A stretch of DNA of 64,000 bases. Origin: Acidobacteriota bacterium (GTDB lineage Bacteria > Acidobacteriota > Blastocatellia > RBC074). Shown here piece by piece: positions 13,654 through 34,306 of the stretch (position 1 is its first letter; the number at the start of each line of letters is the position of its first letter). A model generated the notes under the pieces. That model saw nothing but the letters and a program-made list of their open reading frames with translations, made no database searches and was not told where the DNA came from. A program made the translations under genes and the position numbers. The stretch is taken from positions 1,192 to 65,191 of the forward strand of contig JAJVID010000091.1 in assembly GCA_022072205.1 (NCBI GenBank), written 5' to 3'.

Positions 13654-13660
13654 ATGAGAG

Positions 13661-14966: not shown

Positions 14967-16109
14967 TCAAATGAACGCCGCAAAGACTTCATTCGCCAAC
15001 ACCGTGCCTGCGCGCGAAATTTTCAATCTGTTTTCGTCGAACTCGATCAAGCCGGCTTCGCGCAACCGCTCGATCTCGTCGCGGTAACGTTCCAGCGTGT
15101 TGACACCGAATCGCCGCTGATGTTCGCCGAGATCAACGCCATCTTTCAATCGCAAACGCAAAAACAGATTCTCGCTTTGCCGGTCGTCTTCGTTGAGTTC
15201 AATCGTTTCGGCGACCGGCGACTGGCCGCTCTCGATCTTTGCCAGATATTCGTGGATGTTGCGCGTGTTCGACCATCGGGTTTGGCCGTCGTAGCCAGCG
15301 GCTGAAACTCCGAAGGCCCAGTAGGGCGCTCCCGTCCAGTATTTCAGGTTGTGGCGCGACTCGAAGCCGGGCCGCGCCCAGTTTGAAATCTCGTAATGCT
15401 CGAAGCCTTGTCGTTCGGCCTCGTCCACCAGCGCGAAATACATCTCGACGGTCAGTTCGTCGTCAATCGCGCGCAACTCGCCTCGATTGATTCGGTGCAG
15501 CAGCGGCGCGTCTTTGTAAAGTTCGAGCAGGTAGACCGACAGGTGATCAGGTTCGAGCGCGAAAGCTTCTTCCAGGTTGCGCCGCCACGTCTCCAATTTC
15601 TGTTCCGGCAATCCGGCGATCAGATCAATGCTGACGTTTGCGAAACCTGCGGCGCGCGCCATCCGCACGGCTTCGCGCGCGTCTTCGGATGAATGCGTGC
15701 GCCCGATCATTTGCAATTCGCCGTCGTCGAAGGATTGCACGCCGAAACTCAATCGGTTGACGCCAGCCGCTCGCAACTCTTCGAGATAATTTTGAGAAAC
15801 CGATCCGGGATTAGCCTCGGCGGTGATTTCGGAATCTGGCGCAATGTCGAATGTTTGGCGGCAGGTTTCGATCAGGTCTGAAATCTGTTCGATGGTTAAA
15901 GTCGTCGGCGTGCCTCCACCGAAGTAGATCGTGTCCGCTCGCCGCATCTCAGGCTTTTTTGAAACTTCGGCGCGTTCGATCTCCGCGCGCGCGGCGGCTG
16001 TGTAGCGGCGCGCCAGTTCAGATTCGTATCCGCCAGTGGCGAAATTGCAGTAATGGCAGCGCGTCGCGCAGAACGGTATGTGAATGTAGATACCCGCGAG
16101 GTGTTTCAT
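14967..16109 (-). CDS. hemW: radical SAM heme chaperone HemW (HemN-like)
   Basis: [16 protein letters not shown] is the CxxxCxxC radical-SAM motif. Also has GGGTP and a HemN C-terminal domain. Confidence 0.9.
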
Positions 16110-16143
16110 AGAGACAGGCAGTATAGCACGCCGGTTAATCCGA

Positions 16144-17409
16144 CTATGGCAACCAGGAGAGATGAAACGTATAGAACGCGGTTAGAACCAACAGCCAGAG
16201 CGCGCCTGCGACGCTGACGATCAAATGTACGGATTGTCTGGCTCCCCATTCGGCCAGCAGAAAAACCAGCGGGATGGCCAGCAGACAATGCTTCGGCAAT
16301 CCCATATAAGCCCACGGAGTCCCGGTCGAATAAGAAAAGCTGACGATTGTCACTACGACGGCGTAAAGCAGATACGAGACTCTCATCCTCCACAACCGCC
16401 TGGCGCCCAGACCCAACACCAGCGCGTAGAAAGAGCCGCCCAGCAGATCAATGGCATTGGTTGTGTTGAAAGACTTGATGGCGATCAACAGCGCCTGCCA
16501 GGGTGGAACAAAACTTTGATTGGGCACAACCGCGTTGGCGCTTTGGCTGATTAGTAATCCATATATCAGCGACTGCGGTTTCTGCCAGTCCACTGAAACG
16601 TCGGATAGCGCAACGGCGCGGAAAATCAGCCACGCCAGCAGAGCCGACGGGATCAACAATAGATTGAGGGCTTTTCTCCAACTGGCCCAGCCCACTTTGG
16701 CGAATTGCCGAATTCCGCCAGACGATTGCAGAAATTCACAAACCAGCGGGAGCAGAAGAAAGATTCCCTGCTGGCGGGTCAAAACGGCAAGACCTCCGGT
16801 CACGCCCGCCAGAAACCATCGGTCTTCTCTGGCGCTGATCAAACACAGTGTCGAGCAGAGCAGGAAGAGAGATTCGGTGTATGGCGCGAACAGGATGAAC
16901 GCCGAAGGCAGCATCAGGAAGTAAAAAGAGGTTCGCTGCGCCGCGCGTTTCGGCAGGTCGAATGCGGCCAGCCGCTCGAGGCTGATCAAAAAGAGAATCG
17001 TGCAAATGTTGCTGACGATGAATAATCCCAGCAGTTCATTGCCGCCCGTCAACAATCCCGCCAGTTTTCCAAGCAGCGGATAAAGCGGGTGAAAGGACGA
17101 TGTCCCGTCTTCGGCTCGGTACCCGCGTTCGGCGATTTTCAAAAAGTGTTCGACGTCCCAGCGATTCCACGGCTCGAGAAAAACTCTCGTCAGCCACGCG
17201 CCGAACGGAGCGCTCGGAGGCCAAACCGCAACTTGCTTTTCAAGCTGCGAATGCGGGAGACTGGCCGAACAGAACAGCGCCCATAATGAAAGTCCCACGC
17301 GCGTCACCAGCCAGAAGGAGATGATTCTTCGCCAGGCAGGAGCGTCAGCCGGGCCAGGCTTTTTGAAGTCGGCGGCGCGTGATTCTGAGTGTTCCGGGCA
17401 GGGTTTCAT
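16144..17409 (-). CDS. polytopic membrane glycosyltransferase, PIG-V/mannosyltransferase-like (GT-C)
   Basis: [17 protein letters not shown]...[10 protein letters not shown] resembles the PIG-V family loop motif. It has at least 9 predicted hydrophobic helices. Confidence 0.6.
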
Positions 17410-17420
17410 CGTTGGCGAAC

Positions 17421-18740
17421 TTATTCAGGTTTTGTATACGGATCGCTGGACATGCGCGACAAGCGCCGCATTAGCCATAACAGCAATAGCAAACTCAAGG
17501 TCGGAATCAGGCTGATCAGCCCCGCCGCAAAAGGCACTCCCTCTGATCCGTCCGAGCGCTCTTCAATCAAAAATATCTTCGTCACGTCTGCAAGCGAAGA
17601 GCCTGGTATCAGAAGAATCAAGGCGAGGATCGCTGTCGCGATGGTTTCCCGCCTCGGAAAGTTCATTTGCGACAGCGCGCGGATCGTGATCAACATCGGA
17701 ATCGCGGCCATGATTATGTAATGCGCCCACATTATCGGGCTGATGAGTATGCTCACGATGACCATTAGCCCGTACGATAAATCAAAATTCTTTGTCTTGA
17801 GCGCCAGCCGCAGCCCGGCAATTAGCACCGCGAGAGGCAAGGCGAAAGAAATCAGTTTTGCCAGCGCCGGAACGTAAATCAACGGTGGCGATTCGATGGA
17901 GATCAGCGCAGGTGATGTAGTGCCCGCGAATAACCTGTAGCCAACGCTCCACAAAGAGATGTTGCCGCCATGTGCGCGGTAGTATGAAAAGAGGAGTGGG
18001 CCGACGTGAGTGAAGTAGGACAGAAACGAGTGCCATCCCATTATCGCGGCGGCTGTGAGATTGAGTATCAACGCAGCCGCTGCCGCCGAAATCACGCTCA
18101 ACCATTTACGACGCAATATCAGAAAGATTACCAATGGCCACCCGATGAACTTGAGCGCGACTGCGAAACCCAGAGCCATCCCACCGCTTATTTGACCGGC
18201 GATATCAGCCTTCGGAGAGTCATTGTCACGCAACTTTTGCCAGGCAAACGCCAGAAGGAGCAATAGAATTGTGCTGACCTGACCCAGGACAAGCTCAGTC
18301 CAGACGTGGCCCCAACCCAAAGCCGTCCAGGCGATGAGCAAGACCGGTGGAAGCGCAATCCTGCCTGTCCACCATTTCCACAGAAGTGCGACGGACGCAA
18401 ACAGGCAGATTATTTCAACCAGAAGCCAGATCAATGCGGCGCGCTCATACCCAAAGAGAGCCAGCGGCAGGCTGAGCAGCGCGATTGATGGCGGATGCGG
18501 CGTCGGGTGCGGCAGGATCGCGTGTGGCAGAACCATTCCAAGCTTACTGGCTAGTTCGGGCAAGGTGAGGTAAGGATAACACCCAACGAAGATAGACTTT
18601 GCCAGAAGGTATTCTTGAATGAAGTCCTTGCGGTAGATGTTCTCCGGCGCAAAAGATTTGATTATGAGTTGCGCTCCGGCCAGACCGAATACGATGGCAA
18701 TTGTGATGAGGATATATTTGAATTTGCGGAAGAAGTTCAT
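17421..18740 (-). CDS. DUF2029 / GT87-like polytopic membrane glycosyltransferase
   Basis: RKDFIQEYLLAKSIFVGCYPY is the N-terminal loop motif of the DUF2029 family. The protein is multi-TM and a paralog of 18743..20095. Confidence 0.6.
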   Translation of the reverse strand: MNFFRKFKYILITIAIVFGLAGAQLIIKSFAPENIYRKDFIQEYLLAKSIFVGCYPYLTLPELASKLGMVLPHAILPHPTPHPPSIALLSLPLALFGYERAALIWLLVEIICLFASVALLWKWWTGRIALPPVLLIAWTALGWGHVWTELVLGQVSTILLLLLAFAWQKLRDNDSPKADIAGQISGGMALGFAVALKFIGWPLVIFLILRRKWLSVISAAAAALILNLTAAAIMGWHSFLSYFTHVGPLLFSYYRAHGGNISLWSVGYRLFAGTTSPALISIESPPLIYVPALAKLISFALPLAVLIAGLRLALKTKNFDLSYGLMVIVSILISPIMWAHYIIMAAIPMLITIRALSQMNFPRRETIATAILALILLIPGSSLADVTKIFLIEERSDGSEGVPFAAGLISLIPTLSLLLLLWLMRRLSRMSSDPYTKPE

Positions 18741-18742
18741 GG

Positions 18743-20095
18743 CTAAGAAGATCGAGTCAAAGCGCCGGGAAATTTCCCGACATTGGTTTCATTCATCAAC
18801 CGGCGCATTAGCCAGATGAGGAGCGCCACGCTCAAAGTCGGAATCAAGCTGAGCAATCCGGCGGCGAATGAGACTGGCACATCCGGCTGAATGCCTGATG
18901 CGCCGGAAAGGGAACCAGGGGCGGTGGAGAAAGAGAAGATAAACGTTTCGAGCGTAATGTTGGGGATCAACAGAAATAAGATTGTGATCGCGCATAGCAG
19001 GGTCTCCAGGCGCGGGAACCGAAGAGCGCGCAGCCTGCTCACAATCAAAGTCAGCGGGAGCGCCGCGATTATCAGGTAATGCGGCCAGGTCAGTGGGCTG
19101 ACAAGCAAACAAGCGCAAACCATTATTCCGTATGAGAGATCGAAGTTGTGGCCTTCGCCGACTTTGGCGGATCCGCCGGACTTTGTCACCGTCAAACACA
19201 CGATGAGCGCCAAACCAGTCAGGAGCAGTGAAGAGATGACGGCCAGGCGCGGAGAGAGGAACATAGCCGGAGCGGTTATTCCAGTTATCTCCGGAGACCC
19301 AGTGCCTGAAAAGACTCGCCAACCGACGCTCCACAACGAGAGGTTCTGCGCGCATGACCGGTAAAACGCCGCAGTGGACGGCCCGATATGGAGATAATAG
19401 TCAATTACGACTCGCCACCCGATGATGGCAGCCGCAGTCAGGTTGATGATCGCAAAAACAGCGAGAGCCGCAGTTACGCTCAACCACCGACGGCGGAAGA
19501 CCAGAAAAAGAGCCAACGGCCAAAAGATCAGTTTGAACGATATGGCCGCGCCCAACAGCGCGCCTCCCTGCCATTGCCTGCCATTGCGCAGATTCAACCA
19601 GGCCCCGGTAATCAGCAACAGCAGGATGGTGTTAATCTGTCCAAGGATTAAACCTTCCCAGATGTGACTCCATCCCAAGGCTGTCCAGGCCGAGAGAATC
19701 ATCACAAGCGGATTGACTGAGCCATTAAGCCACCGGAGTAACAAAAATACGGAAGCCACCAGACAAAGTACCTCGACCAGCAACCAGATTCTGGCGGCTT
19801 GTAGGTAGCTGAAGAAAGTAAGCGGCAGAGAAAAGATCGCCAGCCAGGGCGTGTGCGGCGTGGGGTGTGCAAACACCCACTTGGCATTTGTCTGAAACCG
19901 GTTGTTCAATTCGGGCAGAGGTTGGTAGGGATTCACGTCACTGCGCGCCGCCCTGGCCATCAGATATTCCTGGATAAAATCTTTACGCAAGACGTTATCA
20001 GGCTTGAGCGATCTGAGAGCCAGTCGAAAGCCGCTGAAACCGAAGAGTACGGCAAACAGCAGCAATGGTATTTTTAAACGGCGCAAAAGAATCAT
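18743..20095 (-). CDS. DUF2029 / GT87-like polytopic membrane glycosyltransferase (tandem paralog)
   Basis: RKDFIQEYLMARAARSDVNPY. The preferred start is ATG 20095, overlapping the upstream stop as ATGA. The gene ends 2 nt before the next gene. Confidence 0.6.
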   Translation of the reverse strand: MILLRRLKIPLLLFAVLFGFSGFRLALRSLKPDNVLRKDFIQEYLMARAARSDVNPYQPLPELNNRFQTNAKWVFAHPTPHTPWLAIFSLPLTFFSYLQAARIWLLVEVLCLVASVFLLLRWLNGSVNPLVMILSAWTALGWSHIWEGLILGQINTILLLLITGAWLNLRNGRQWQGGALLGAAISFKLIFWPLALFLVFRRRWLSVTAALAVFAIINLTAAAIIGWRVVIDYYLHIGPSTAAFYRSCAQNLSLWSVGWRVFSGTGSPEITGITAPAMFLSPRLAVISSLLLTGLALIVCLTVTKSGGSAKVGEGHNFDLSYGIMVCACLLVSPLTWPHYLIIAALPLTLIVSRLRALRFPRLETLLCAITILFLLIPNITLETFIFSFSTAPGSLSGASGIQPDVPVSFAAGLLSLIPTLSVALLIWLMRRLMNETNVGKFPGALTRSS

Positions 20096-21903
20096 CGGGT
20101 CTGAATCCTTTTTTGCCTCACGCGATTGATCGTTCGCGCGGCCATCCAAAGCAGCATCACTCCCCAGGCAGTCAATGAGAGCGCCTGCGAAATGCGTTGC
20201 GAAATCTGCCTGACCTCATAGTCGAGCGTCAACCGATGCGCTCCAGCGGGAATGTCAATCAACATCAGCCCGCTGCCCTGCTCGGGCGTGATCGGAATTT
20301 CGCGTCCGTCGAGACGGGCGACCCAGTGCGGATAGTTATAGGCCTCGATTCGCGCGCGCGCAGGCTCTTCACTTTCAATCAGGAATTCGCGTCGAGCTAT
20401 GCCGAGTTTTTGCGAGACGACACGGCCACGCCCTGAGATGAGTAAAATGCCGCCCGGTTCCTGAGTGGGCGGATAAAAATTGAAATCCGATCCGGGAGGA
20501 CGGAAATAGATTTGATTGGCGGAGTTGAAGATGTATCTCAGATCGTCTTTGTCCTGCAGCCTGCGCGCTTCATCAGGCGTAATTCCACGCGCTGTGAGCA
20601 GGTCGGCGACTTGCGCGCGAGTAGTGTTCGATTCATCCAGCCGCGCGAGCATGAACGTGAGCGCCGCGTTGAAGATCACAACCCAGGTCAGAAACGCCGC
20701 AATCCGCATTCGTGATTTGGGATTGAGCGCCGGCCACGCTTCGATGACTGCCGCCGCGAGCAACCCGCATCCGAGCGCCACGAGAGGTTGGAAGCGCCAC
20801 GGAAATTGAATGAATTTCAACCCCGGCAGATAACGCCACAGAGGCCCCGATACCGGCAGTGAAATAAGCAGTCCGAATGCCGCGAGCGCAAGACCGAACC
20901 ACGCGGCGGAACTCAGACGGGCAGGCGTCTTCTGCGGCAAAAGAATTTTTCGGATCATCAGGCCGAGTAGCAAAGCCATCGCTGTTTGCGCGAGCGTGAT
21001 CATGCTGGCGACGTGATTGATGTCGGCCCATGATTGCCGGTACGCGCTGCCGTCGGGCGATTTCGCAAACAGGAAGTAGTTGCGGTAATCCTGTTGAACC
21101 GTTTGGAGGCGGATTTGCGTCCACCCGGATTCGACCCACTGCGGCCACAGAAAAAACGCCGTGAGCGCAAGCGTGATCACGCCCGCCCCGGCCAGGCGCG
21201 CCAGACCGCGCCAGCCGAAATTCGGCAGATAGATCAGCGCCATCAGACAAATGGCCACCGCGCAGAGATAAGTCGTGATCGCGTGGGTAAGGATGAGCGC
21301 GCTGAAGCTCACCGCGAAAATTGCAACGCTTCGCGCGCGCCTGTCTCCGCCGAGCAGTAAATGAGCGCCGAGCAGCGAAAATGGAAGCAGGCTCAGGCCC
21401 GCAGCGTTGGCCATAAACGCCCGGTGCAGCGCGATCAACGGATAGGCGGGCAGCAGAACGTAGATCGAGGAACAGATCAGACTCTGACGGTGATTGAAAA
21501 ACTGTCTGGCGAAAATGTATGAAGCGGCTTGCGCGATTATCAGAATGAGCAGGGAAAGAATTTTGAGAGAAGCGAGAGCGTCAATCCCAAGCAACTTCAT
21601 AAGCGCCGCGCTTAGCAGGTAACTGAGCGGCGGATAGAAAGTGAAGATAGCGTCGCCGCGTCCCCCGTCCAACAGGCCGGCCCATCTGGGGAAGACCTCG
21701 CCTTCGGAAAAACTGCGCTCGAAGGATCGCGTGATGTGGTAATGGAGCGGCAAATCGCCCTGAACGCCGAAGGCCGGATGCGTTATCCTAGCGAAGGTCA
21801 GCAGCGCGCCTACAAAGATCCAGACCGCGAAAAGCAGGATCGCTTGTTTAAGCGGCGGCAGCTTCGAGCTTGAAGATCCGCCATTTGATTCCGTGTGATT
21901 CAT
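20092..21903 (-). CDS. large polytopic membrane protein, GT-C/ArnT-like putative glycosyltransferase
   Basis: GDLPLHYHITRSFERSFSEGEVFPRWAGLLDGGRGDAIFTFYPPLSYLL is the first-loop motif of PTPS-related/ArnT-like membrane proteins. There are about 12 TM helices and a C-terminal soluble domain. Confidence 0.55.
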   Translation of the reverse strand: MNHTESNGGSSSSKLPPLKQAILLFAVWIFVGALLTFARITHPAFGVQGDLPLHYHITRSFERSFSEGEVFPRWAGLLDGGRGDAIFTFYPPLSYLLSAALMKLLGIDALASLKILSLLILIIAQAASYIFARQFFNHRQSLICSSIYVLLPAYPLIALHRAFMANAAGLSLLPFSLLGAHLLLGGDRRARSVAIFAVSFSALILTHAITTYLCAVAICLMALIYLPNFGWRGLARLAGAGVITLALTAFFLWPQWVESGWTQIRLQTVQQDYRNYFLFAKSPDGSAYRQSWADINHVASMITLAQTAMALLLGLMIRKILLPQKTPARLSSAAWFGLALAAFGLLISLPVSGPLWRYLPGLKFIQFPWRFQPLVALGCGLLAAAVIEAWPALNPKSRMRIAAFLTWVVIFNAALTFMLARLDESNTTRAQVADLLTARGITPDEARRLQDKDDLRYIFNSANQIYFRPPGSDFNFYPPTQEPGGILLISGRGRVVSQKLGIARREFLIESEEPARARIEAYNYPHWVARLDGREIPITPEQGSGLMLIDIPAGAHRLTLDYEVRQISQRISQALSLTAWGVMLLWMAARTINRVRQKRIQTR

Positions 21904-22059
21904 TTGCCCAGAGGTCTATGCGCGTGATCGTATTCGGGGGCGAGATAATGTCACAGATCGAAATCGAAGGCCAAATTGATGTAAGCCCTTGCCCATAAAA
22001 AGCGATGGGAAAAGTGGGAGGGGCTATTTCGCCGATTCTTTCGCGGAACGAATTTCCCC

Positions 22060-22088
22060 TTGATCAATCCAGGGTTTGTGGCTAGAAT
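22060..22088 (+). promoter_or_regulatory. candidate sigma70-type promoter far upstream of flp
   Basis: TTGATC (22060-22065), a 17-nt spacer, then TAGAAT (22083-22088). It would give a leader of roughly 360 nt. Confidence 0.3.
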
Positions 22089-22456
22089 GCGCCCGCATTT
22101 TGTTCCTTATTGTTGATCAAGCTGACACGTAAGGTGGCGGCGCCAAACGGTCGTAGGCGTCAACAATTCCGTCCCCCCGAAAAAACATACAAAATCCAAT
22201 GCTGCTGAAGCGCCTGTCAGGGGAGGTGGCATCTTCAAGGTAAGATTTGGATGTATTTGTCCCTTACCCGCGAGATGTTTTGTTGTTGACCGTATGTCAG
22301 ATCATCAATGAAGGGCAGGAGGTAAATTACAACCATCTTCACCCTAGAAGTTGCCGGATGCCTTAGCGGATCGGCCTGAATCAACCCCCTGGGTTATATC
22401 CACGCAACCGCGCAACTTGAGTTAAACAATAACCAGGCAAAAAATAGGAGGAAACC

Positions 22457-22633
<177 letters not shown>

Positions 22634-23006: not shown

Positions 23007-23066
23007 GGATCATCGTTAAATTTGGTGTCCGATGATCCTATGGCTGTGTTTTCCAGCAGCCATAGG
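23007..23066 (+). terminator. two adjacent perfect hairpins between flp and cpaA (possible partial terminator/attenuator)
   Basis: GGATCATCG/CGATGATCC (9 bp, 23007-23038) and CCTATGGCTG/CAGCCATAGG (10 bp, 23037-23066), followed by TTGTT. Confidence 0.4.
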
Positions 23067-23098: not shown

Positions 23099-23647
23099 TT
23101 GCAGAATGAAGTCTCCGCAGGTTTGCTCACCGCGTTCGTCATCGCAGTTTCGATTTTTGACATCCGCGAACGCCGCATTCCCAACCTTCTTGTCTTTCCC
23201 GCTGCGCTGATTGGTTTGACGCTCAATTCGATTTTGCATGGCTGGGTAGGACTAGGCTCTGGATTGAAGGGCCTGGTTGTCGGGTTTGCGTTGCTCTTTA
23301 TCCCCTACCTGGTCGGAGGGATGAAGGCGGGTGACGTGAAATTCCTGGCGGCGATAGGAACTTTCACCGGCGCGACTGACGTTGTCAGGGCGCTGCTTGC
23401 TACTCTGCTTTTTTACCCGCTGCTTGCGGCCCTCGCTGTGAGCAGGGAGAGAAAGCTCAAACTCACCTGGTTGAGGTTTCGGCGGGTTCTATTCAATTTT
23501 CTGGGCTTCTTTATCCCCGGATTGCGCCTCCACGCAATCCGGCTTGACGGACAGGATGACAAGAGCATCCCTTCGGCGACGACGCCTTTCGGCGTCGCGA
23601 TTGCCGCCGGAGCATTGATCGCGATTTACACGAACTTCTTGCGTTGA
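23099..23647 (+). CDS. cpaA: A24 family prepilin peptidase CpaA/TadV
   Basis: Multi-TM protein with two catalytic Asp contexts, [11 protein letters not shown] and [18 protein letters not shown] start. Confidence 0.85.
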
Positions 23648-23733
23648 CCGCAACCTTTCGCATTGCTTTCCACCCCCATTGTCTGGAAAAATGACCAGAC
23701 CACATCCTTTGCTTCTCACAGAGAGGTACGCAT

Positions 23734-24255
23734 ATGAGAACGCTTACGAGTTACCCTTATCGGTATCGGCGGAAAATCACGCGGAGAAGCGAGCAGGGAC
23801 AATCATTTCTCGAATTCGCCTTGATCGTGCCGGTTCTGTTTCTTATGCTGCTTGGCGTCACAGTCATCTCACAGGGGTTCAACCTGCAGATGGTTCTGTA
23901 CGGAGCGTCTTACGAAGGCGCGCGGGTCTGGGCGAAGAACCCGGCGGGCGGCGATGGAATCCATTGCATGCTACCCGCTTGCGATCCCAATTTGGGCACA
24001 ACGAACAACTTCGAGAAGTATGTGATTCCCGTTGTGCGGCAGTACATCACAAACAATGGGTTCGAGGGCGCCAAAGTCCGCTTTTTTGCCACAGATCAGC
24101 GCGGATATCAGAACGCCCTGAGCATCATTGGCAATAATCCGCAATGGGTCAGAGTTACTTTGCTCTATCCGTACGAACTACCGCTGGGAAACCTCGCAGT
24201 GAACTTCCAGCAGGTTTGGATCAGCGCGAGTTGTACTCTGAAGCGCGGGAGCTAG
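23734..24255 (+). CDS. TadE-like pseudopilin
   Basis: [23 protein letters not shown] is a TadE N-terminal signature with a G/XXXXEF processing site. Confidence 0.75.
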
Positions 24256-24284
24256 GGATTCACAACCGTCAGGTCGCAGGAGGT

Positions 24285-24818
24285 ATGATGTACGACAAGA
24301 TCGGCAAAATGGGAAAGGTGGGCGAACAGGGTCAGACAATGGTTGAGTTCGCATTCGTTTTCCCGCTCTTCCTGATTCTGGTTCTCGCCATCATCGAATT
24401 CGGGCGCGCCTGGGCGGCGAAACAGGCTCTGACCATCGCCGCGCGTGAAGGCGCTCGTATCCTGGTTCTGCCATACGGCCCGAAACCGCCCTACACTTAT
24501 GGTTCGGAAGACGAGGTCAAGGCCGCTGCGCTTGACACGGTCAAAGCCTCGATGAACGGATCGGGTGTGGCGGTGACGGCGTCCACTCAAATCAATTTGG
24601 TCAGGATCACGCCGGGCAATGACGGCGTTTTCAACACCGGCGACGATAAGATAGAGCCGTACGATAACGTGAAACGCGGCGAGCGGGTCGGCATTCAGAT
24701 CACCTATCCGTTTGAGACGCCGGTCCCGATACTTCTGAAAATGTTCGATAGTGGCGGCGCGCCGCCAGCGCAGAGCGTCATCAATATGGGGATGACCTGT
24801 TATATGGATCACGAATGA
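24285..24818 (+). CDS. TadE/TadF-like pseudopilin
   Basis: ATG 24285 follows a GCAGGAGG RBS. Contains GEQG/QTMVEFAFVFPLFLILVLAIIEFGR. Confidence 0.75.
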   Translation: MMYDKIGKMGKVGEQGQTMVEFAFVFPLFLILVLAIIEFGRAWAAKQALTIAAREGARILVLPYGPKPPYTYGSEDEVKAAALDTVKASMNGSGVAVTASTQINLVRITPGNDGVFNTGDDKIEPYDNVKRGERVGIQITYPFETPVPILLKMFDSGGAPPAQSVINMGMTCYMDHE

Positions 24819-24898
24819 TATTGCCGGAGAGCTGTCGGAGGAATCCGTAGCCGCAATCTCCGTGCGCCCTGATCAAAACCCACGAAGGAGTTTACGAA

Positions 24899-25810
24899 AT
24901 GAACAGACGCTTCCTGCTGGCTCTTGCCGGCGCGGTCTTTTTCGGATTGCTCGCGATCATGGCGGCGAAGAATTATCTGAACGCCAAGGTCACCAGCGAC
25001 ATCGCCAAGACGGAAACCGCCGTCGTCATTGCGAAGACCGAAATCCCGCGTGGCACTAAAATTGGGCCTGAGCACATCACGGTTGAACGGTATCCGATAA
25101 GACTTCTTCCCGAAGGCGCGATGGTCAAAAAGGATGAAGTGATTGGCCGCGTGGCTTTCCTGGATGTTCCGGCGAAGACGCTGATCCTCGACAAACAGTT
25201 GGCGGGATTGGGGGCGCAACCGGGATTGTCAGGAATCACAGCGCCCGGCATGCGCTCGGTTTCGGTTCGCGTTGACGAGGCGAGCGGCGTGGCCGGTTTC
25301 GTCGCCCCGGAAACTTACGTTGACGTGATCGCGATTATGCAGCCGCAACTCGACGGCGCTAAGGCCGTCTCGAAAGTCATCTTGCAGAAAGTCAAAGTCC
25401 TTGCGGGCGGCCAGAAGATGGAAACCAAGAGCGACGGCAAGGCGGCTCTGGTCAACACCGTGACTCTGGAAGTCACGCCCGCGCAGGCTGAGAAATTGAA
25501 GCTCGCCGAGGCCGAAGGCCGGCTGCAACTTTCGATCCGCAACGGAATTGACCAAATTATCGAAAAGACTCCGGGCGCGACAAAGCGTGACGTGATCAAC
25601 GACATAGCGCTGGAAAATCGTGCGCGCGAGGGCACACGCGACGGAATGGGCGGCCCGGCCAGAGCGGGGCAGGCTCCCCCGCCGATCACCTTCAATGTAA
25701 ATCCCAATCAACCGGCGTCAACCCCGCCGACGGTGAGGATCATCTCGCGCGAGAAATCAATCGAACTGATCGAAGGCTCCAAGCGCACCCGCGTCGAAAT
25801 GGTGCCTTGA
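24899..25810 (+). CDS. cpaB: Flp pilus assembly protein CpaB/RcpC
   Basis: N-terminal TM anchor, a SAF-like domain ([12 protein letters not shown]) and an RcpC-like beta domain. Its position between the pseudopilins and the secretin fits. Confidence 0.8.
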
Positions 25811-25964
25811 AGTTGTGAGCTTGTGAGACCGGAGCCGCTGGCGCTTCGGTCTTTCGCTCATTGGAATGTCGTATTTCCTGTCCCCCCGCAGGCGGCCCCC
25901 AGGCTAGTGGATACCTGACAAGCCCATTGCAAATTTTGATACAGCCGAATTTTCAGGAGACTTT

Positions 25965-27638
25965 ATGAACACTCAACTCCACCGAATCCGCCCAGCCCTG
26001 CGATGCTTCTCTTTGCTGGTCGTGGCGCTCGCGGCCAGTTTGTGCGCGATGGCGCAGGAGCGGGCGACCCTGCAAGCTTCGTTCACCAATAACGCCGAGC
26101 CGATCAAGATTGACGTTCAGGTCGGCCAGTCGCGCGTCATTGATTTCGATCAGGAGGTAGACCGCGTCGCGAGTTCCGATCCGAAGGTCGTCGAAACGGT
26201 GCCGATCTCGTTCAAGCAGGTGCTGATCAACGGCCTGCAATTCGGCCAGGTCAACCTGGTCGCGTGGTCGAAGCCGAAAATCAAAGGCGAGGCGTCGCGG
26301 ATGCTGGTCTTCGACATTTACGTTCAGGTCAATCTTTCGCTGATTGACAACCAGATCAAGATTCTCTTCCCGAAAGAGAATATTCAGCTCTCGCAGGCGA
26401 ACAATTCGGTGGTGCTCTCAGGCAGCGTGACCAGACCGGAACTCTCCGAGCAGGCGCAGAAGATCATCGAGGCCGCCGGGTTGAAAGTCACGAACCTGCT
26501 TAAAGCGCCCGTGCTCGATGCGGCGCAGGTGCAGTTGCAGATTCGTGTGGCGGAAGTGAATCGCTCGATTTTGCGTGAACTGGCGACGGCTTATGGCGTG
26601 GGAAATAGCGTTGTGCCAGCTTTCGTAAGCTCCGGTGGCCCGGCACAGACAGGAGGCAGCCTGGATTTAGCCAAAGCAGGCGCTCTGGCCGCTATTGCCG
26701 AAGCGGGGGCAGGGGTCAATCTCTTGCTTGGAAATCCGAATGCGTCCGGCTCTGTTCTGGGCTTTGTTCGCGCGATGCATCAGCGCGGCGCGATCCGTGA
26801 GTTGGCCGAACCGAATCTGATCGCAATGCATGGTCAGAAGGCGAGTTTCCTTGCCGGAGGCGAATTCCCGATTCCGATCGTTCAATCTCTCAGCACCGGA
26901 CAATCGTCAGTGACAATCTTATTCAAGGAATTCGGAGTGAAGCTCAACTTCACGCCCACCATCATTGATGAGAATCACATCCGGCTGGAATTGGAGCCGG
27001 AGGTCTCGACTCCGGATTACACCTTCGGCATACGTTTGCAGGGGTTTGTGATTCCTGGGTTGATCACTCGAAGGGCGAAGACAACACTTGAACTTCGTGA
27101 TGGTCAGAGTTTCGCTCTTGCCGGTTTGATTGATAACCGCGAGCAGGTCAACCTGTCGAAGGTTCCAGTGCTGGGCGATATTCCGGTTTTGGGAGAGCTT
27201 TTCAAGAGCCGTAGTTTCCAGCGCAATGAAACTGAGTTGCTTTTCCTGGCGACGGTGAAAGTGGTTGAGCCGCTCAACCCCGACCAATTGCCGCGCTTGC
27301 CAGGTGTCAGCGAGTTGAAACCCGTAGGTTCCGCGAATCCCGCCGGCGCCGCTCCGTCAAGCTCTGTTGAAGGCCAGTCAGGACATTCTATCCCGCGCAA
27401 GGCCGGCGAACAGACTCCGGAGAGCGAGAACAAGACCAAATTGGAACAGCCGGCCACTGATAAACCCGCTACGGACAACGCCGATAAAGGCCTGACGGAG
27501 AATCTGACTTCGAAGCTGGCGCTTCCATCATCGCCGACCGGCCCAGCCGGACCAAGCGGTTCGGACGCGCGCCCTTCGAAGGCGGAAAACGCGCCGACGC
27601 CAAAGCCCGACGCAAAAGAGCAGAAGAAGCAGCAGTGA
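25965..27638 (+). CDS. cpaC: secretin CpaC/RcpA with long low-complexity C-terminal tail
   Basis: Signal peptide, then the secretin core [25 protein letters not shown]...[13 protein letters not shown]. The last ~115 aa are Pro/Ala/Ser/Lys-rich. Confidence 0.9.
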
Positions 27639-27770
27639 CAAACCCTGATTGCGATCAGTCGTTTCACCGTCGCCTGGCAGCCTCATCTGTTTTTTCGGAC
27701 GGGGCTGTAACTTCGGTAAGCGGCTTCGGAAATGCGCTTCAGAACAAAAGAAGAAATGGAGGTAACAAAA

Positions 27771-29135
27771 ATGAATCGCATCTTCACACGGCCAGGTTCC
27801 ATTCGTAATTTCTACCGCCGTCAGCAGAAAGGCTCGATCATGGTGCTGACGACGTTGTTGATCATGGGCATGATCGGAATGCTGGCGCTGGCGATTGACC
27901 TCGGATTTCTGTTCAGCGCTCGCAATCAGCTTCAGAACGGCATTGACGCCGCGACTCTGGCGGCTGGCGCGGGATTGCGCGTGACCATGGAGGACGATCC
28001 GGCGGCGCCGCAGCAGAAACTCCTTGCGCAGCAACTCGCCATTCAGTACGCAGGTTACAATCAGGTTCGCACCAAATCTGATCCTGACCCGAATGGCAAT
28101 CAGCCAAACGAGAACAATATCCAGTTGGATAAGATCGGAAAGGTAACTGTTGACACATCCGGCGATCTTCCGAGAGCGCAGGTTGACGCTGTTCTGAAGA
28201 CGCCATTGTTATTCGCCGGAATCTTCGGTTTCAACAGCATTGACATGGGCGCGACGGCTAAGGCTTCGCTGCTGCCGGTTGACGGAGGGAACGGGACGAT
28301 AGGCGCTGGAACCGCTATCGGCGGCGGTTGCTGGCGTCCGCTGTTCGTGCCAGACACGTTTTTCGATATAAACAACGTGCCATTGAGAGTCGGCGCCGTC
28401 ATTTCAGGCATCCCTCGCGTACCGAGTCAGGACGGCGATTATTATCGTTCGCGCTTCGCCGCTGGCGCGCGCAACACTTATCCGTTTGTTGACTCCATAA
28501 CGGGCGTTGGTTCTTCTGTCACAAGCCTTCGCGACACTCAATTGAAGGCCGATATCGGAGTGAAGACGATCATGGGCGAGGACATCGTTCTCGATCCCAA
28601 TTATTACTTTATCGCCGATTTCTCGGCGTTGCCGCGCGCGACATTCGATGTCTTGAGCGTTGGCGACCTCGCCAATTTCGGATACTGCGGCAAAATTCGC
28701 GTCGGCGACAACATCCCGGTTTATCCCATAAAAGATTTGGCGAAAAAAGATGAAGTGAGAACAGGGCTTCTCGCGCTGCAATACCGGACGGTCGGAGTTG
28801 ATTCGATTGACGTGACTACCGAGGCGCTTTTCCGCTACGTTACAAGCTCCAGTTATCCGGGCCCGAACACGCACGGCGCGATCATTCCGGTCTTGTTCTA
28901 CAACCCGATCATCTGGAAAGACCCCGGAGCAGTGGACGCGACGACCACGCTCACTGTCACCAACATCGGATTGTTCTTTATGAGGAACGTGAGGCCCACC
29001 GGTGAGCTTGAAGGATATTTTGTCCGCGAGATTATTTCCGGCGGAACTCCGATTGACGCGACGAATATGACGTCCGATAGTGATCCGAGCTTTAAACGAA
29101 GCTGGCTGCCGATGTCGGTTCAGCTACTCAAGTAG
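27771..29135 (+). CDS. TadG-like pilus assembly protein
   Basis: ATG 27771 follows a GGAGG RBS. GSIMVLTTLLIMGMIGMLALAIDLGFLFSARNQLQNGIDAATLAA matches the TadE/G-like N-terminal domain. Confidence 0.7.
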   Translation: MNRIFTRPGSIRNFYRRQQKGSIMVLTTLLIMGMIGMLALAIDLGFLFSARNQLQNGIDAATLAAGAGLRVTMEDDPAAPQQKLLAQQLAIQYAGYNQVRTKSDPDPNGNQPNENNIQLDKIGKVTVDTSGDLPRAQVDAVLKTPLLFAGIFGFNSIDMGATAKASLLPVDGGNGTIGAGTAIGGGCWRPLFVPDTFFDINNVPLRVGAVISGIPRVPSQDGDYYRSRFAAGARNTYPFVDSITGVGSSVTSLRDTQLKADIGVKTIMGEDIVLDPNYYFIADFSALPRATFDVLSVGDLANFGYCGKIRVGDNIPVYPIKDLAKKDEVRTGLLALQYRTVGVDSIDVTTEALFRYVTSSSYPGPNTHGAIIPVLFYNPIIWKDPGAVDATTTLTVTNIGLFFMRNVRPTGELEGYFVREIISGGTPIDATNMTSDSDPSFKRSWLPMSVQLLK

Positions 29136-29497
29136 GTGGATGAAGAGTACGCATAAATCCTGGGAGCGCGCGCGGATTGCGCGCCGCTATCGCAACCTTC
29201 ATCACGACGAAACCAAGCCAACTTAGCGCGTCTGAAACTCATCCGAAGGCCCCTGGAAATCAGCGGTTGCTGCTGAAATCTTGTCCGGGAATTTTTGATG
29301 GAGTTTCATTCCTGCTGAGACTATAATTCCGCCTCCGTTAGCCTTGTAGCCCCAAAGGATCCGTTCAACGGCTTTCATCTCAGGCTTGGCGTTAATTGGT
29401 TGCGCGGAATCCGAAGGCTGACGGCGCGAGTTGGAATTCCATCGTGGGCCAGGCCGCAAGAATCAAATTCAGGATTTAAGTTAAGGAACCGAAGTCA

Positions 29498-30697
29498 GTG
29501 TCAAAAGCGATTTCTGTTGTTGTCATCGGTCGAAGTTTGAACCAGCAAGAGCGAACGCGTCTGCGTAGCGCGAGCCATATCCCGCTGGCCATCGTGGCGG
29601 AATTGCCGAACGCTCCGCAGGTGCTGGACGAACTCAACCGGTTGCGTCCGCAAGCAGCGCTCGTGTTGCTCAACGGCGAACTGAACCATACATTTCAGCT
29701 CGTCGAGCGGATTCATCAGGAATTGCCGGAGACGGCGGTGATCTGTTCGTCCGAGGATAATTCTCCCGACGTTATTCTCCAGTCATTCAGATCAGGAGCT
29801 ATGGAGTTCCTGCGATTGCCGCTGGTCGAAACCGAGATTGCTTCGGTCTTTGCGAAGATTGAACAGACCGCCACGAAACCCGAAGAATCTCACGGACGCG
29901 TCATCGCTGTATACGCCAGCAAAGGTGGATGCGGGACGACGTTCGTGACGGCCAATCTGGCGGCTTCTCTGGCGCGGCTTTCGCGCAAACGCGCCTGCGT
30001 AATTGATCTGAATTTGCAGGCGGGCGATCAGCCGCTCTATCTGGGCCTGGAGCCGAATTATTCGATCCACGACATCGTCCGAAACTTCGACCGCCTGGAT
30101 GATCAGTTGATCGCCAGTTACCTGACGCAAAGATCGAAGTATCTGACGTTGCTCGCCGCGCCGACCGAAATCGGTAAAGATGAAGACGTGCGGGTTGAGC
30201 ACGTCACGCGATCAATCGCTTTGCTGCGCGCCCAGACAGAATACGTAGTGATTGACCCGCCTCGGATGTTAAATGAATTGACCATCGCCGCGCTCGACGC
30301 GGCTGATGATCTGATTCTGCTTCTGACGCTGGACATCCCGGCGATTCGCAGCGCGAAACGCGCGCTCGACATTTTCGCCCGACTCGGTTACGACCGCAGC
30401 CGGGTTAAAGTCGTGATCAACCGCTACACCAAGACTCCGGAGTTTGATCTGAAACAGGTCGGCAAGGTTTTAGAGACGGATGTCTTTGCGACGGTCGCCA
30501 ATGATTATCAGGCGGCGATCTCTTCGATCAACGTCGGCGAACCGCTGGTGCTTTCCAAGACCCAATCGCGCATAGTGCATGATTTCGGGACTCTGGCGAG
30601 CAAGTTGAGCGGTATCAGGCTGCCAAGTGAAAATTCCGAGGCCCCGGCGCGTCCGAGCCGTGGCGGCTGGACATCGCTCTTCGGCGGCAAGCGATAA
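29498..30697 (+). CDS. cpaE: CpaE/TadZ: atypical receiver domain + ParA/MinD-like ATPase
   Basis: [16 protein letters not shown] is the deviant Walker A. The N-terminal receiver-like fold has Asn (LVLLNGE) where the phospho-Asp would be, as in TadZ ARD domains. Confidence 0.85.
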
Positions 30698-30734
30698 GAA
30701 GGCAGGCGAATATTTTGCGCTACAACCGCTGATC

Positions 30735-30752
30735 ATATTTCATATGAAATAT
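30735..30752. promoter_or_regulatory. 18-bp perfect palindrome upstream of cpaF (candidate operator)
   Basis: ATATTTCATATGAAATAT is self-complementary. An extra GAAATAT half-site lies 9 nt downstream. It sits in the 250-bp cpaE-cpaF gap. Confidence 0.4.
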
Positions 30753-30947
30753 CGCATAGGAAATATGGTCTGATCGCTGCTTCCGGTTCCTGGCGTCGTC
30801 TTTGTTTCAGGTTTGCTCTCATCCGGTCGGCAATCGTCATCACTGATTTTGCGCCAGACCGGTTCTTGCCGGGGCGGCTGCCCCCACACACACAAACCCG
30901 GCGTTCAACTGCCCCCAAAAACTAGGCCCGAAAAAAAATAGAAAAAT

Positions 30948-32288
30948 ATGTCAGTTCTCAAAGAAAGATTACAAGAACAGCAGAACGGGTCTGCTTCACG
31001 CGCTACGGGCGCTTTGCGGGCGTCGAACGAATTGCAGGAACTCAAAGCCCGCGTTCACCGCATCCTGATCAATAAACTCGACCTGAGCAAACTGGAGAAC
31101 GCCGACCCGGAAGTAGTTCAGAAGGACGTGAAGAAGGTCATCGAGCGCATTCTCGATGACGAGAACGCGCCGCTCTCCGGGATTGAACGCGAACAGGTTC
31201 AAACCGACGTGCTGCACGAATTGTTCGGCCTCGGCCCGCTCGAACCGTTGTTGGCGGACAAAGGCATTTCCGATATTCTGGTCAACGGCTGGCGCAATGT
31301 TTACATCGAGCGGCGCGGCAAGCTCGAAAAAGTTGATGTCACGTTCCGCGATGACGCGCACCTGCTGCAGATCATTGACCGTATCGTGTCGCGCATCGGG
31401 CGCCGCGTTGACGAATCTTCTCCGATGGTGGACGCGCGTTTGTCTGACGGATCGCGCGTCAACGCCATCATCCCGCCGCTGGCGATTGACGGCCCCGTGC
31501 TCTCGATTCGCCGTTTCGGGGCTGAGCCGCTGACAATCAAAAACCTGATTGAACTGAAAGCGCTCACGCCGCCGCTCGTGCAGATGCTGGAGGCCTGCGT
31601 CAAATCGCGTCTCAACGTTCTGGTTTCTGGCGGAACCGGCGCCGGAAAGACCACCATGCTCAATTGTCTTTCGGGTTTCATTCCCAACGATGAACGTCTG
31701 GTGACGATTGAAGACTCGGCGGAGTTGCTGTTGCAACAGCCGCATGTGGTTCGGCTGGAAACGCGCCCGCCCAACATCGAAGGACGCGGCGAAGTGACGC
31801 AGCGCAGCCTGCTCCGCAACTCGCTCCGTATGCGTCCCGACCGAATCATCGTCGGCGAGGTTCGCGGCGACGAGGCGATTGACATGTTACAGGCCATGAA
31901 CACCGGTCACGACGGCGGTATGACCACCATCCACGCCAACACGCCGCGCGACGCCCTGGCCCGTCTCGAAACGATGATCGCCATGGCCAATTTGCGTATT
32001 TCCGATAAAGCCATGCGCCAGCAGATCAGCTCCGCCATCAATCTGATCATCCAGGTTTCGCGCATGGGCGACGGTTCGCGCAAAGTCGTGAGCGTCTCCG
32101 AAATCATCGGCATGGAAGGCGAGATCATCACGATGCAGGAAGTTTACAGATTCGTGCGCACCGGCGTCGGGCCGAAAGGCGAGGTGCTCGGCCAGTTCCG
32201 ACCGACGGGCATCAGGCCGCGTTTTTCGGAACGACTTGAACAGTACGGTTTCAGACTGCCGCCGAACGTCTTCGAGGCGGCGTTTTAA
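30948..32288 (+). CDS. cpaF: CpaF/TadA secretion ATPase
   Basis: Walker [12 protein letters not shown], Asp box, Walker [10 protein letters not shown] and His box [13 protein letters not shown]. Confidence 0.95.
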
Positions 32289-32304
32289 ATGAGTCAGGGG
32301 AGCT

Positions 32305-33276
32305 ATGGGCGGACTACTTTTCATTCTCATTCTCTTCGCATTCGTCCTGCTGACGGTGGCGATCTATTTTTTCGTCAGCCGGGACACCGATCAATATCGC
32401 CGCCGGATTGACGAACGGTTGAAGCAGTTGGTGCAGGAGCGCGGAGGCGCGAGCCAGCGCGAAATGCAACTTCTCAAGGAGGAACTGCTCAGCAACGTGC
32501 CGGCGTTCCACCGGGCGCTGATTCGCTTCGAGGTCTTCAATAATCTGCAGGCGGTGTTGCGTCAGGCCGACCTGAAGGTGTCGGTTTACCGTTTCGTGAT
32601 CTCCAGCCTGATTGGAGGCTTCGTCGTGGGAGTAGTGGTCTTCTTCATCTCCGGCTCACTGATGGCGATGTTGATGACGGCGGTGGTAGTTATGGTGATC
32701 CCTTTGATAGTCGTGCGGAACAAGCGGAGCCGCCGTTTCCGAAGCTTTCTGGAGCAGTTGCCCGACGCGTTGGAACTGATGGTGCGTTCGTTGCAGGCCG
32801 GGCACAGTTTCAGTTCGGCTCTGCAGATGGTTGCGACGGAAATGCCCGACCCAATCGCGCGCGAGTTCGGCAAGACTTATGAAGAGCAGAACCTGGGGTT
32901 GAATATCAAAGCGGCGCTTGAAAATCTGGCTGAGCGGGTGCCGATTCTCGATCTCAAACTTTGCGTTACGGCGGTGCTGATCCAGCGCGAGATTGGCGGC
33001 AACCTTTCCGAAGTTCTGCGGAACATCAGCCACACGATCCGCGAAAGGTTCCGCATCCAGGGGGAGATCAGAGTCAAGTCGGCGCAGGCGAGATTGTCTG
33101 GGTACATCGTCAGCGCGCTGCCGTTCTTTCTCTTTTTCTGGATCAACATTTTCAATCCCGCTTACATGAGGACGCTTTATGATCATCCTTACGGCGTCCT
33201 TATACTCGGAACGGGCGTGGTGATGCAGATCGTCGGCTGGCTGATCATTCGCAAGATCGTCAACATTCAAATTTAG
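32305..33276 (+). CDS. tadB: TadB (GspF-like inner-membrane platform protein)
   Basis: T2SSF domain: [22 protein letters not shown]...ENL, with terminal TM helices. Confidence 0.85.
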
Positions 33277-33358
33277 GAGGGAGTGGGGAATGTGAAGTAG
33301 GGGGAGGGAGTTATAGATCGCTAAACGAGCAAACTCACTACCCACTCTCTACTCCCGA
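33277..33358. repeat. degenerate heptamer-based inverted repeat between tadB and tadC
   Basis: GGGAGTGGGGAATG (33281-33294) is identical to 57061-57074. The downstream ACTCACTACCCACTCTCTACTCCC is an imperfect reverse complement (about two thirds of positions pair). Confidence 0.45.
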
Positions 33359-33367
33359 AAGGCGCTT

Positions 33368-34306
33368 ATGGATATTAACAGCCTGATACTTTTTGGTTCT
33401 CTGGCCTTTGCCGTCGGCAGCGGGATATTGGCTTTTTACTGGTTGTGGGCGCGACCGGCCAATCCGGTTGGAGACCGGTTGAGAGAGATCAACCCACACG
33501 CGGCTGAAGACTCTCCGTCTCAGCCGGTTTCGACCATCATTGTCGAACAGGTCGCCAAACGAATGGATCAGATCGCGCCGACTCCGTCGCCTCGGAATGT
33601 GCGCCGGTTGCGCAGACGTTTGATCCAGGCGGGGTTTTTCGATGAAAACGCGGTGACAATCTACCGCGTAATCCGGCTGATCTCAGCGGTGGCGTTTCCG
33701 GCCATCATGTTCTTTACGCTGACCGTCCTGCTTGGTTGGCCGGTTGATGTGACGACGCTGGGCGGAACGGTGCTTGCGCTCCTTTACGGCATGTTCCTGC
33801 CGTCGTTCTTCCTTTCGCGGATGATCTCGAACCGGAAAGGGCGGATTACGCGGGCGCTGCCTGACGCGCTGGATTTGATGGTCGTATGCGTCGAGGCGGG
33901 ACTGGGCTTGAACGCTGCGCTGCAACGCGTCGGACGTGAGATGGAACTTGTCGAGCCTGATCTGTCGGAAGAGATGGCCATCACCAACCGCGAGATTCGC
34001 GCGGGTAAGCCGCGCGACGAGGCGCTGCGCAACCTGGGTTCCCGCACCGGCGTGGATGATGTGAAATCTCTGGTGGCGATGCTGGTGCAGACGGACCGTT
34101 TCGGAACTTCAATTGCCGACAGCTTGCGCGTCTTCGCCGATTCGATGCGCACTAAACGCCGCCAGCGCGCCGAGGAACTCGTGGCCAAAGCGGCGATCAA
34201 GTTGATTTTTCCGCTGCTGTTATGTATTTTCCCCGCGCTGCTGATTGTGCTGATGGGGCCTGCGCTGATCAGAATCTGGACTCTGTTTGGCGCCGTCTCT
34301 CAATAA
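33368..34306 (+). CDS. tadC: TadC (GspF-like inner-membrane platform protein)
   Basis: T2SSF domain: [22 protein letters not shown]...R...G, with terminal TM helices. Confidence 0.85.

Follow-up and report, generated by a model that had tools for sequence, protein, structure and literature searches.

Do the membrane glycosyltransferases encoded back to back with a pilin gene in a soil bacterium of the Blastocatellia (Acidobacteriota) glycosylate that pilin? The question is raised by a 64,000-nucleotide stretch of contig JAJVID010000091.1 (assembly GCA_022072205.1), hereafter called the window, in which four consecutive minus-strand genes for large polytopic membrane proteins stand divergent from flp, the pilin gene of a complete plus-strand tad locus. 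We refer to the four genes as g1 to g4, starting from the one nearest flp, and to a gene for a fifth protein of this kind, located within the tad locus itself, as g5 (Table 1). We are quite confident that g1 to g4 are GT-C glycosyltransferases in a variable, g1-anchored island. That the island carries out stepwise periplasmic glycosylation from polyprenyl-phosphate sugars, with Flp or the Tad pilus as the acceptor, is the explanation we prefer, but we hold it tentatively and put its chances somewhat below even.

GT-C enzymes next to and inside the tad locus

The four genes are packed like an operon. Read from the sequence, the junction of g1 and g2 is cccgATGAttc, in which the ATG of g2 (at 20095) overlaps the TGA stop of g1; g2 and g3 are separated by 2 nt (TAG-cc-ATG), and g3 and g4 by 11 nt (TAA-gttcgccaacg-ATG). 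The hemW gene follows in the same direction, with 34 nt between the TAG of g4 and its own ATG, and its product scores 290 bits against TIGR00539 (cut-off, 205). The open reading frames and junctions thus agree with a first-pass annotation of the window, which had described an operon of four coupled GT-C-like genes followed by hemW and sharing an upstream region of about 550 bp with flp. The base composition of the block resembles that of the remainder of the window, and Rfam and tRNA scans of the window returned nothing.

Assignment of the block proteins to GT-C families is also upheld, with all four scoring above the Pfam gathering cut-off. g1 matches PTPS_related (PF10131; 31.7 bits against 26.4, aligned to profile positions 1-305 of 621), g2 and g3 match GT87 (PF09594; 74.9 and 71.1 bits, respectively, against 25), and g4 matches PIG-V (PF04188; 33.3 bits against 22.4, with just profile positions 50-179 of 443 matched) as well as, at borderline strength, PMT_2 (PF13231; 27.1 bits against 26.1). 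All four of these families sit in the GT-C clan CL0111, and PF10131 has no function assigned to it (PMC7801869). As predicted at first pass, g2 and g3 are tandem paralogs; they are old, with 44% identity over 424 residues (E = 3e-106).

Comparison with curated families places these proteins at some distance from characterized enzymes. The sole curated NCBIfam model touched by g2, the mannosyltransferase equivalog NF009915/PRK13375, was matched at 30.7 bits against a cut-off of 413, and an NCBIfam search with g3 gave no match at all; therefore, neither is an equivalog of a characterized GT87 enzyme. g4 weakly resembles NF046093, a "cell surface glycopolymer formation" family (33.8 bits; cut-off, 150). 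The g1 protein itself has no match to YfhO (PF09586) at E ≤ 5, and precomputed, partly faint matches to that family occur in many g1 orthologs, with the g1 paralog of one related locus (L022) reaching 30 bits against 28.5. g1 to g4 are, then, new members of known GT-C families.

Because sequence searches of PDB chains with g1 (as a profile), g3, and g4 yielded nothing useful, a comparison of folds was needed. g1 was modeled with AlphaFold from 60 homologs (predicted local distance difference test [pLDDT], 87; predicted template modeling score, 0.89). In a Foldseek comparison of this model with the PDB, every one of the top 35 matches was a GT-C enzyme, at template modeling scores of about 0.4. 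The best was ArnT (5f15; E = 8.9e-6), and further matches included AftD, STT3/OST, AglB, PglB, AftA, Emb, ALG12, DPY19, AftB, and ALG3. In the model, an N-terminal polytopic membrane domain is followed by a beta-sandwich at residues about 486-562, predicted to be periplasmic, and a last transmembrane helix.

g5 gave a similar result by fold, despite having no match in Pfam even at E ≤ 5. Its AlphaFold model (pLDDT, 86.9) was matched best by the DPY19 C-mannosyltransferase (7zli; E = 1.4e-6; TMq, 0.54), followed by AftA, ArnT, and STT3B. The fifth GT-C-like protein that had been reported inside the Tad locus is therefore a GT-C protein by fold, outside any Pfam family.

Acidic residues expected to be catalytic in the first loop of GT-C enzymes are conserved in g1, g2/g3, g4, and g5. 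In g1, the invariant positions of loop 1 are G49, D50, H54, P72-R-W-A-G-L, and G80-G-x-G83, and D79 and D84 are nearly invariant (at least 90% conserved). Both g2 and g3 carry RKDFIQEY directly past the first transmembrane helix; g4 shares the motif W-D-x-E-H-F-x-x-I-A-x-x-G-Y (RWDVEHF..IA..GY; general form, WD..[FY]..IA..GY) with its closest orthologs, which we term type A; and g5 has an invariant D52-x-D54-x-G-W-H. To judge from the positively charged N-termini and the models, these motifs probably face the periplasm.

The position of g5 ties it closely to the pilus genes. It is a member of the tad operon, starting 13 nt past a DUF192 gene, and in many relatives it is fused C-terminally to the TPR protein encoded next to it, giving proteins of 907-932 aa (P0161-P0163, P0166, P0167, P0169-P0171, and others; P-numbers denote homologous proteins and L-numbers related loci). 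One such fusion is the gene at 10001-12754 of L086. Either g5 or the g5-TPR fusion occupies the same tad-operon position in L086 and L087, and the AAA-like, SLT, and VWA genes come after it there as they do in the window. Given this location within the operon and the frequent fusion to the adjacent TPR gene, g5 is a more firmly Tad-linked candidate than the g1-g4 block. The fusion stands where a TadD-like TPR protein would be expected in a tad operon.

A variable island anchored by g1 and its linkage to flp

To see what accompanies g1 elsewhere, we gathered related loci via the contigs encoding its homologs, a scan of species-representative genomes with a g1 profile, and an exact-match scan of metagenomes, and mapped all window proteins onto them by tblastn. 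At least 324 g1 homologs were found, and those named by their source are from Blastocatellia or Acidobacteriota; the close relatives all come from metagenomes or metagenome-assembled genomes (MAGs). The comparison set comprises 30 related Blastocatellia loci with enough flanking sequence.

Across this set, the four-gene block is not conserved as the unit that the first-pass annotation had taken it to be. g1 is constant, and it is accompanied by zero to three further genes for polytopic membrane proteins, mostly GT87 or PIG-V-like, in combinations that differ between species. In four loci (L014, L021, L027, and L035), hemW follows g1 directly. A single PIG-V-like gene stands between g1 and hemW in three others, either type A (L001 and L004) or a second type, B, which is 29-36% identical to type A (L007); type B replaces type A in some loci and accompanies it in others. 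One GT87 and one PIG-V-like gene precede hemW in L003, L091, and L092, while the order after g1 is GT87, type B, type A, and hemW in L008. In L023, g1 is followed by one GT87 gene, and in L029, a GT87 gene lies ahead of g1 and a type A gene after it.

Two GT87 genes occur together in the window only, and the g2 and g3 lineages are each found singly elsewhere: g2 orthologs at 60-66% identity are the single GT87 gene of L003 and L008, and g3, which has just 23 homologs at E ≤ 1e-10, has relatives at 64% and 50% identity that are the single GT87 gene of L092 and L091, respectively. Such variation in accessory transferases around a constant anchor gene is typical of loci that diversify glycans, and it favors functional coupling of the island to flp.

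Some islands contain still other membrane proteins. In L022, g1 is followed by a second PTPS_related/YfhO paralog (11770-13584), a type B gene, a gene for a 737-aa membrane protein (14737-16950), and hemW; L011 (11702-13894) also belongs to the islands with such additions. The polytopic protein of about 730 aa has no Pfam family and starts MVWLFA[LI]TLFVSALLLFLVQPLIARMLLPLLGG. Both the second paralog and this protein are candidates for further glycosylation modules.

The pairing of g1 with flp extends to loci that share none of the genes downstream of g1. A divergent flp/g1 pair (or flp/GT87-g1) is present in 18 loci, 16 of which have a tad locus of the tad1 or tad1b type (the window, L001, L003, L004, L007, L008, L014, L021, L022, L023, L027, L029, L030, L035, L091, and L092). 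In the other two, L020 and L028, the pair is kept beside a diverged Tad type (tad2) whose proteins are 36-59% identical to those of the window; nothing downstream of g1 is held in common with the window, and Flp itself differs (…GLELSEYAV…TTLTTTIANGS and …TALTSAVSAGS). hemW follows the island in most tad1-type loci, as well as in most of the loci in which the pair is broken, and is absent from tad1b and tad2 loci. Because the pair is kept in tad1b and tad2 contexts, the adjacency of flp and g1 outlasts that of g1 and hemW there. We propose that g1 was ancestrally head to head with flp. At the level of gene order, adjacency across Tad types so far diverged, with the other flank of g1 wholly different, favors functional coupling of the two genes.

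The candidate acceptor and its alternatives

As a class, GT-C enzymes work on the non-cytoplasmic side of the membrane, where polyprenyl-phosphate carriers supply their sugars. For the donor, the order of action, and the acceptor in this case, we infer the following. Each enzyme would take a sugar, most likely mannose, from such a carrier at the periplasmic face of the inner membrane. g1 would place the first sugar on the acceptor, and the GT87 (g2 and g3) and PIG-V-like (g4) enzymes would extend it to a short, probably mannose-based oligosaccharide, with glycan length and linkages set by the accessory genes of each species. The acceptor would most likely be mature Flp, at its Ser/Thr-rich and presumably surface-exposed C-terminus, or else a different component of the Tad pilus, and g5, with its TPR partner, would be a second enzyme, possibly the primary one dedicated to the pilus. 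Because the block as a whole is not conserved, the main grounds for this idea are the flp/g1 pair, where it is retained, and the presence of g5 within the tad operon.

Ser/Thr-rich tails are a common feature of these pilins. The window Flp (MISRFIKDEQG/QDIVEY...RLTSANSAIS, with the processing motif G/QDIVEY) ends in the Ser/Thr-rich segment TSANSAIS that had been pointed out at first pass, its orthologs from related loci (63-94% identity) likewise have C-termini rich in Ser and Thr, and such tails are found in all Flp types across the examined loci. Flp1 of Aggregatibacter actinomycetemcomitans has been reported to be glycosylated (PMC6182317).

Precedents for each part of the scheme exist in other systems. 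The first-pass annotation had cited TfpW, and the precedent is real: in Pseudomonas aeruginosa with group IV pilin, this GT-C enzyme is encoded next to pilA and arabinosylates pilin Ser/Thr residues in the periplasm (bioRxiv 10.1101/2020.04.19.049825). As in that case, a gene for a GT-C-type membrane enzyme adjoins the major pilin gene. However, the TfpW gene follows a type IVa pilA, and its product adds oligomers of D-arabinofuranose, whereas the window combines a 58-aa Flp (type IVc/Tad) with a divergent gene and up to four candidate enzymes.

In actinobacterial protein O-mannosylation, the first sugar is placed by a protein mannosyltransferase (PMT; GT39), and the GT87 enzyme PimE then extends the chain on the same mannoproteins (PMC12757957), and the window is alike in pairing GT87 enzymes with a different GT-C initiator whose sugar they would extend. 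It differs in that the putative initiator is PTPS_related/YfhO-like rather than GT39, that neither g2 nor g3 comes near the equivalog model described above, and that the genes are clustered, adjoin a pilin gene, and belong to a diderm acidobacterium.

YfhO-family enzymes offer a third comparison, as the streptococcal PgtC2 and PgfM1/M2 O-glycosylate Ser/Thr-rich extracytoplasmic tails (bioRxiv 10.1101/2024.05.05.592596). A resemblance to these and to the YfhO-CsbB-GtcA systems of Bacillus subtilis and Listeria lies in the weak PF09586 matches that g1 homologs often carry beside PF10131, and in a GT-C fold with a C-terminal extracytoplasmic domain. Unlike the three-component YfhO systems, the window has no GT-A synthase of undecaprenyl-phosphate sugars and no GtrA/GtcA flippase nearby, and g1 has no significant match to PF09586.

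For g5 and its TPR partner, the closest parallels are TMTC1-4, which also join a GT-C membrane domain to TPR repeats on the non-cytoplasmic side and have an acidic loop-1 motif (PMC7801869), and DPY19, the best structural match. In contrast to both, g5 shows no sequence similarity that Pfam GT-C families can detect, its TPR partner has a gene of its own in the window, and the genes are embedded in a bacterial tad operon.

Several observations weigh against Flp as the acceptor. Among functionally characterized GT87 and PIG-V relatives, the substrates are often lipid-linked glycans (phosphatidylinositol mannosides and glycosylphosphatidylinositol) rather than proteins. No GT2 polyprenyl-phosphate sugar synthase or GtrA-type flippase was present among the window open reading frames scanned, nor was there a GT2 or GtrA-family match in the related loci with Pfam tables, although genes for these functions may lie in other parts of the genome. 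The Tad pilus of Caulobacter crescentus, the only one with a high-resolution structure, shows no glycan density (PMC10710030). Given this structure and the report on Flp1, glycosylation of Flp is therefore neither universal nor unprecedented.

The linkage itself is also incomplete. Twelve loci for which 3 kb or more of upstream sequence is available lack the flp/g1 pair; 11 of them form one clade (100% bootstrap), and the twelfth is L006. On one 366-kb contig from this clade, a g1/type B/Fic/hemW cluster lies about 51 kb from flp, and the Flp tail of the clade still reads KLTSANQSIS. The linkage has been lost at least twice with both partners retained. The first-pass annotation had counted occurrence of the block without linkage, in genomes lacking tad genes, as evidence against its hypothesis, and this is seen in part: a tad locus is present, but g1, the PIG-V-like gene, and hemW are unlinked from it in a well-supported clade. 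Housekeeping neighbors (hemW, a beta-eliminating lyase gene, and cmk) adjoin the island about as conservedly within the tad1 and unlinked clades, and the adjacency to flp, which is the only link of the island to Flp, may be inherited synteny. As the backbone of a neighbor-joining tree of g1 is unresolved (bootstrap 7-21%), the 18 linked loci may descend from a single ancestral event. We likewise downgraded the apparent presence of one g1 copy per tad locus in one genome (a MAG with L018 and L020), one of the two copies being on a 2.2-kb contig. The glycosylation hypothesis is clear, but it is founded on gene context, which is itself not uniformly conserved.

Two further candidates were set aside. 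Independent recruitment of g1 to the tad2 loci is not claimed, given the low support of the same backbone. The unlinked clade was also searched for another GT-C gene ahead of flp, and this candidate was rejected: on a second contig from that clade, recognized by an identical 48-mer where rcpC begins, the position upstream of flp is taken by a gene for an ABC (ATP-binding cassette) exporter.

One rival explanation is that the island belongs to an envelope glycoconjugate pathway unrelated to pili, in which a lipid-anchored or polymeric glycan (a lipomannan-like glycolipid, or side chains of lipopolysaccharide or exopolysaccharide) is elongated or decorated in the periplasm and the proximity to flp is lineage-specific synteny. 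Mannosyltransferases acting on lipid-linked glycans are the closest characterized members of the GT87/PimE and PIG-V families, the weak resemblance of g4 to NF046093 points the same way, and the g1/PIG-V-like/hemW unit persists apart from tad in a whole clade, with its housekeeping neighbors conserved just as well. In addition, 50 distant g1 homologs (22-29% identity; Candidate Phyla Radiation, Chloroflexota, Omnitrophota, and others) have no flp-tad locus alongside, the sole related match near them being a 33%-identical TadA-like ATPase in L061. We consider this pathway somewhat less likely than the preferred explanation. Against it, the flp/g1 pair survives in tad1b and tad2 contexts where every other neighbor differs, and the island has no genes for polysaccharide export, Wzx/Wzy, GT2, or sugar nucleotides beside it in the loci inspected.

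A related possibility is that g5 and the TPR protein alone modify the pilus, with the TPR part binding pilins or Tad components as in TMTC-type enzymes, while the four-gene block does something else. This agrees with the GT-C fold and the invariant DxD in loop 1 of g5, with the fusion to the TPR gene in many relatives, and with the tad-operon position retained in L086 and L087 and also in the clade with g1 unlinked, where the 366-kb contig has an intact tad operon still containing a g5-TPR fusion. However, g5 could instead be structural, a TadD-like assembly factor, and a pilus-modifying g5 is compatible with the preferred explanation rather than exclusive of it. We rate this possibility about on a par with the envelope pathway; it overlaps with that pathway as regards the four-gene block, and its likelihood is therefore not to be added to those of the other explanations.

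Least probable, in our estimate, is a general system of periplasmic protein O-glycosylation (O-mannosylation-like), comparable to PMT/PimE or the streptococcal PgtC2/Pgf enzymes, with many secreted or membrane targets and Flp as at most one substrate: a GT-C initiator with GT87 elongators does match the PMT/PimE pathway (PMC12757957), YfhO-family enzymes modify Ser/Thr-rich regions of several membrane-associated proteins (bioRxiv 10.1101/2024.05.05.592596), and g1 orthologs are numerous in Blastocatellia metagenomes, including in the unlinked clade, but a head-to-head position with flp across diverged Tad types is not expected of a general system.

The most far-reaching version of the preferred explanation, glycosylation of the Flp/Tad pilus, is that a two-part dedicated GT-C machinery glycosylates Blastocatellia Tad pili. 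One part would be g5 and the TPR protein in the tad operon; the other would be the g1 island divergent from flp, in which exchange of GT87 and PIG-V-like modules would make the Flp glycan species-specific. We regard this version as rather unlikely. Were it true, no enzyme system would have been assigned to the glycosylation of Flp/Tad pilins before this one, and it would bring with it a new GT-C family outside Pfam and a TMTC-like GT-C and TPR architecture in bacteria.

Many bacteria depend on Tad/Flp pili to adhere and to form biofilms. The full-text literature searches made for this analysis returned no paper assigning an enzyme to Flp modification and no description of a system made up of a flp-paired GT-C gene, interchangeable modules, and a tad-embedded GT-C/TPR protein. 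The flp/GT-C pairing and the tad-embedded protein are concrete candidate genes, and if the Tad link is real, they would add a variant not seen before to the periplasmic glycosylation systems already known. The differences in accessory genes between species would in that case amount to a natural experiment in how glycans diversify, with pressure from phages or predators as one possible cause, as reported for the glycans of type IVa pilins (bioRxiv 10.1101/150227). If the island builds an envelope glycolipid instead, it still marks an uncharacterized periplasmic glycosylation pathway in Blastocatellia.

The flp upstream region and neighboring genes

Table 1. Genes and intergenic region discussed in the text (positions within the 64,000-nucleotide window)
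Feature	Position	Strand	Description
hemW	14967..16109	-	Radical-SAM heme chaperone; same direction as g4
g4	16144..17409	-	421 aa; PIG-V/PMT_2-like GT-C enzyme, type A
g3	17421..18740	-	439 aa; GT87 GT-C enzyme, paralog of g2
g2	18743..20095	-	450 aa from the ATG overlapping the g1 stop; GT87 (DUF2029) GT-C enzyme
g1	20092..21903	-	603 aa; PTPS_related/YfhO-like GT-C enzyme; anchor gene of the island
Divergent flp/g1 intergenic region	21904..22456		553 bp
flp	22457..22633	+	58-aa Flp prepilin; PF04964 E = 5.6e-7, below gathering score
Core tad genes	23099..34306	+	Prepilin peptidase (A24), two TadE-like, RcpC, secretin, TadG, TadZ, TadA, TadB, TadC; by Pfam
Open reading frame with a single transmembrane helix	34386..34547	+	53 aa, after tadC; 51-52-aa equivalents in L086 and L087
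DUF192 gene	34598..34942	+	E = 4.4e-22; same position in L086 and L087
g5	34956..36614	+	552-aa GT-C-fold membrane protein; tad operon member
TPR protein	36676..37761	+	TPR Pfam matches; N-terminal hydrophobic membrane anchor in the translation

The region between g1 and flp was aligned across 10 loci (the window, L001, L003, L004, L007, L008, L014, L021, L027, and L035). Most of it goes with flp: the flp-proximal part of about 420 nt (22030-22456) contains long, near-identical blocks of DNA across species whose proteins are just 50-80% identical, and the g1-proximal part of about 130 nt is poorly conserved. A promoter-like TTGATC-17-TAGAAT lies at 22060-22088 on the plus strand and a weaker GTGACA-16-TACGAT at 21954-21927 on the minus strand, on the g1 side; promoter and terminator scans found such sites to be no more numerous than in shuffled sequence, and both are weak hints only. 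With the first site as its promoter, flp would have a conserved 5' leader some 360 nt long, for which a consensus RNA structure (RNAalifold) was weak (-6.9 kcal/mol, with a positive covariation term) and Rfam had no match. The conserved blocks may be regulator-binding sites or an unusual leader, and in this alignment the flp and g1 units look like back-to-back promoters rather than one common regulatory element.

On the other side of flp, the 465-bp non-coding gap before the prepilin peptidase gene (22634-23098) contains three hairpin-forming inverted repeats (22860-22887, 23000-23045, and 23037-23066), which may be attenuators or terminators that set the ratio of pilin to machinery. The order of the tad genes beyond it is the same in L001, L003, L004, L086, and L087.

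Past the TPR gene, the same order of genes is found in relatives: an AAA-like protein of 424 aa, an SLT lytic transglycosylase, a 255-aa protein without a family, and a VWA protein (window, 37883-42244; L086, 12848-16893; L087, 12889-17242). This suggests that the four genes are an extension of the tad operon.

At the opposite edge of the island, hemW is probably a housekeeping neighbor. Directly downstream of it in the window are a Uma2-family gene and a truncated DDE_5 transposase fragment (13156-14497), where relatives have the beta-eliminating lyase gene and cmk, and this edge looks like a local rearrangement or insertion. Farther along are a toxin-antitoxin module on the minus strand (10710-11403), consisting of genes for a HepT-like RNase and an MNT-type nucleotidyltransferase, and two gamma-glutamyltranspeptidase genes on opposite strands, less than 10 kb apart (9-1493 and 8638-10380).

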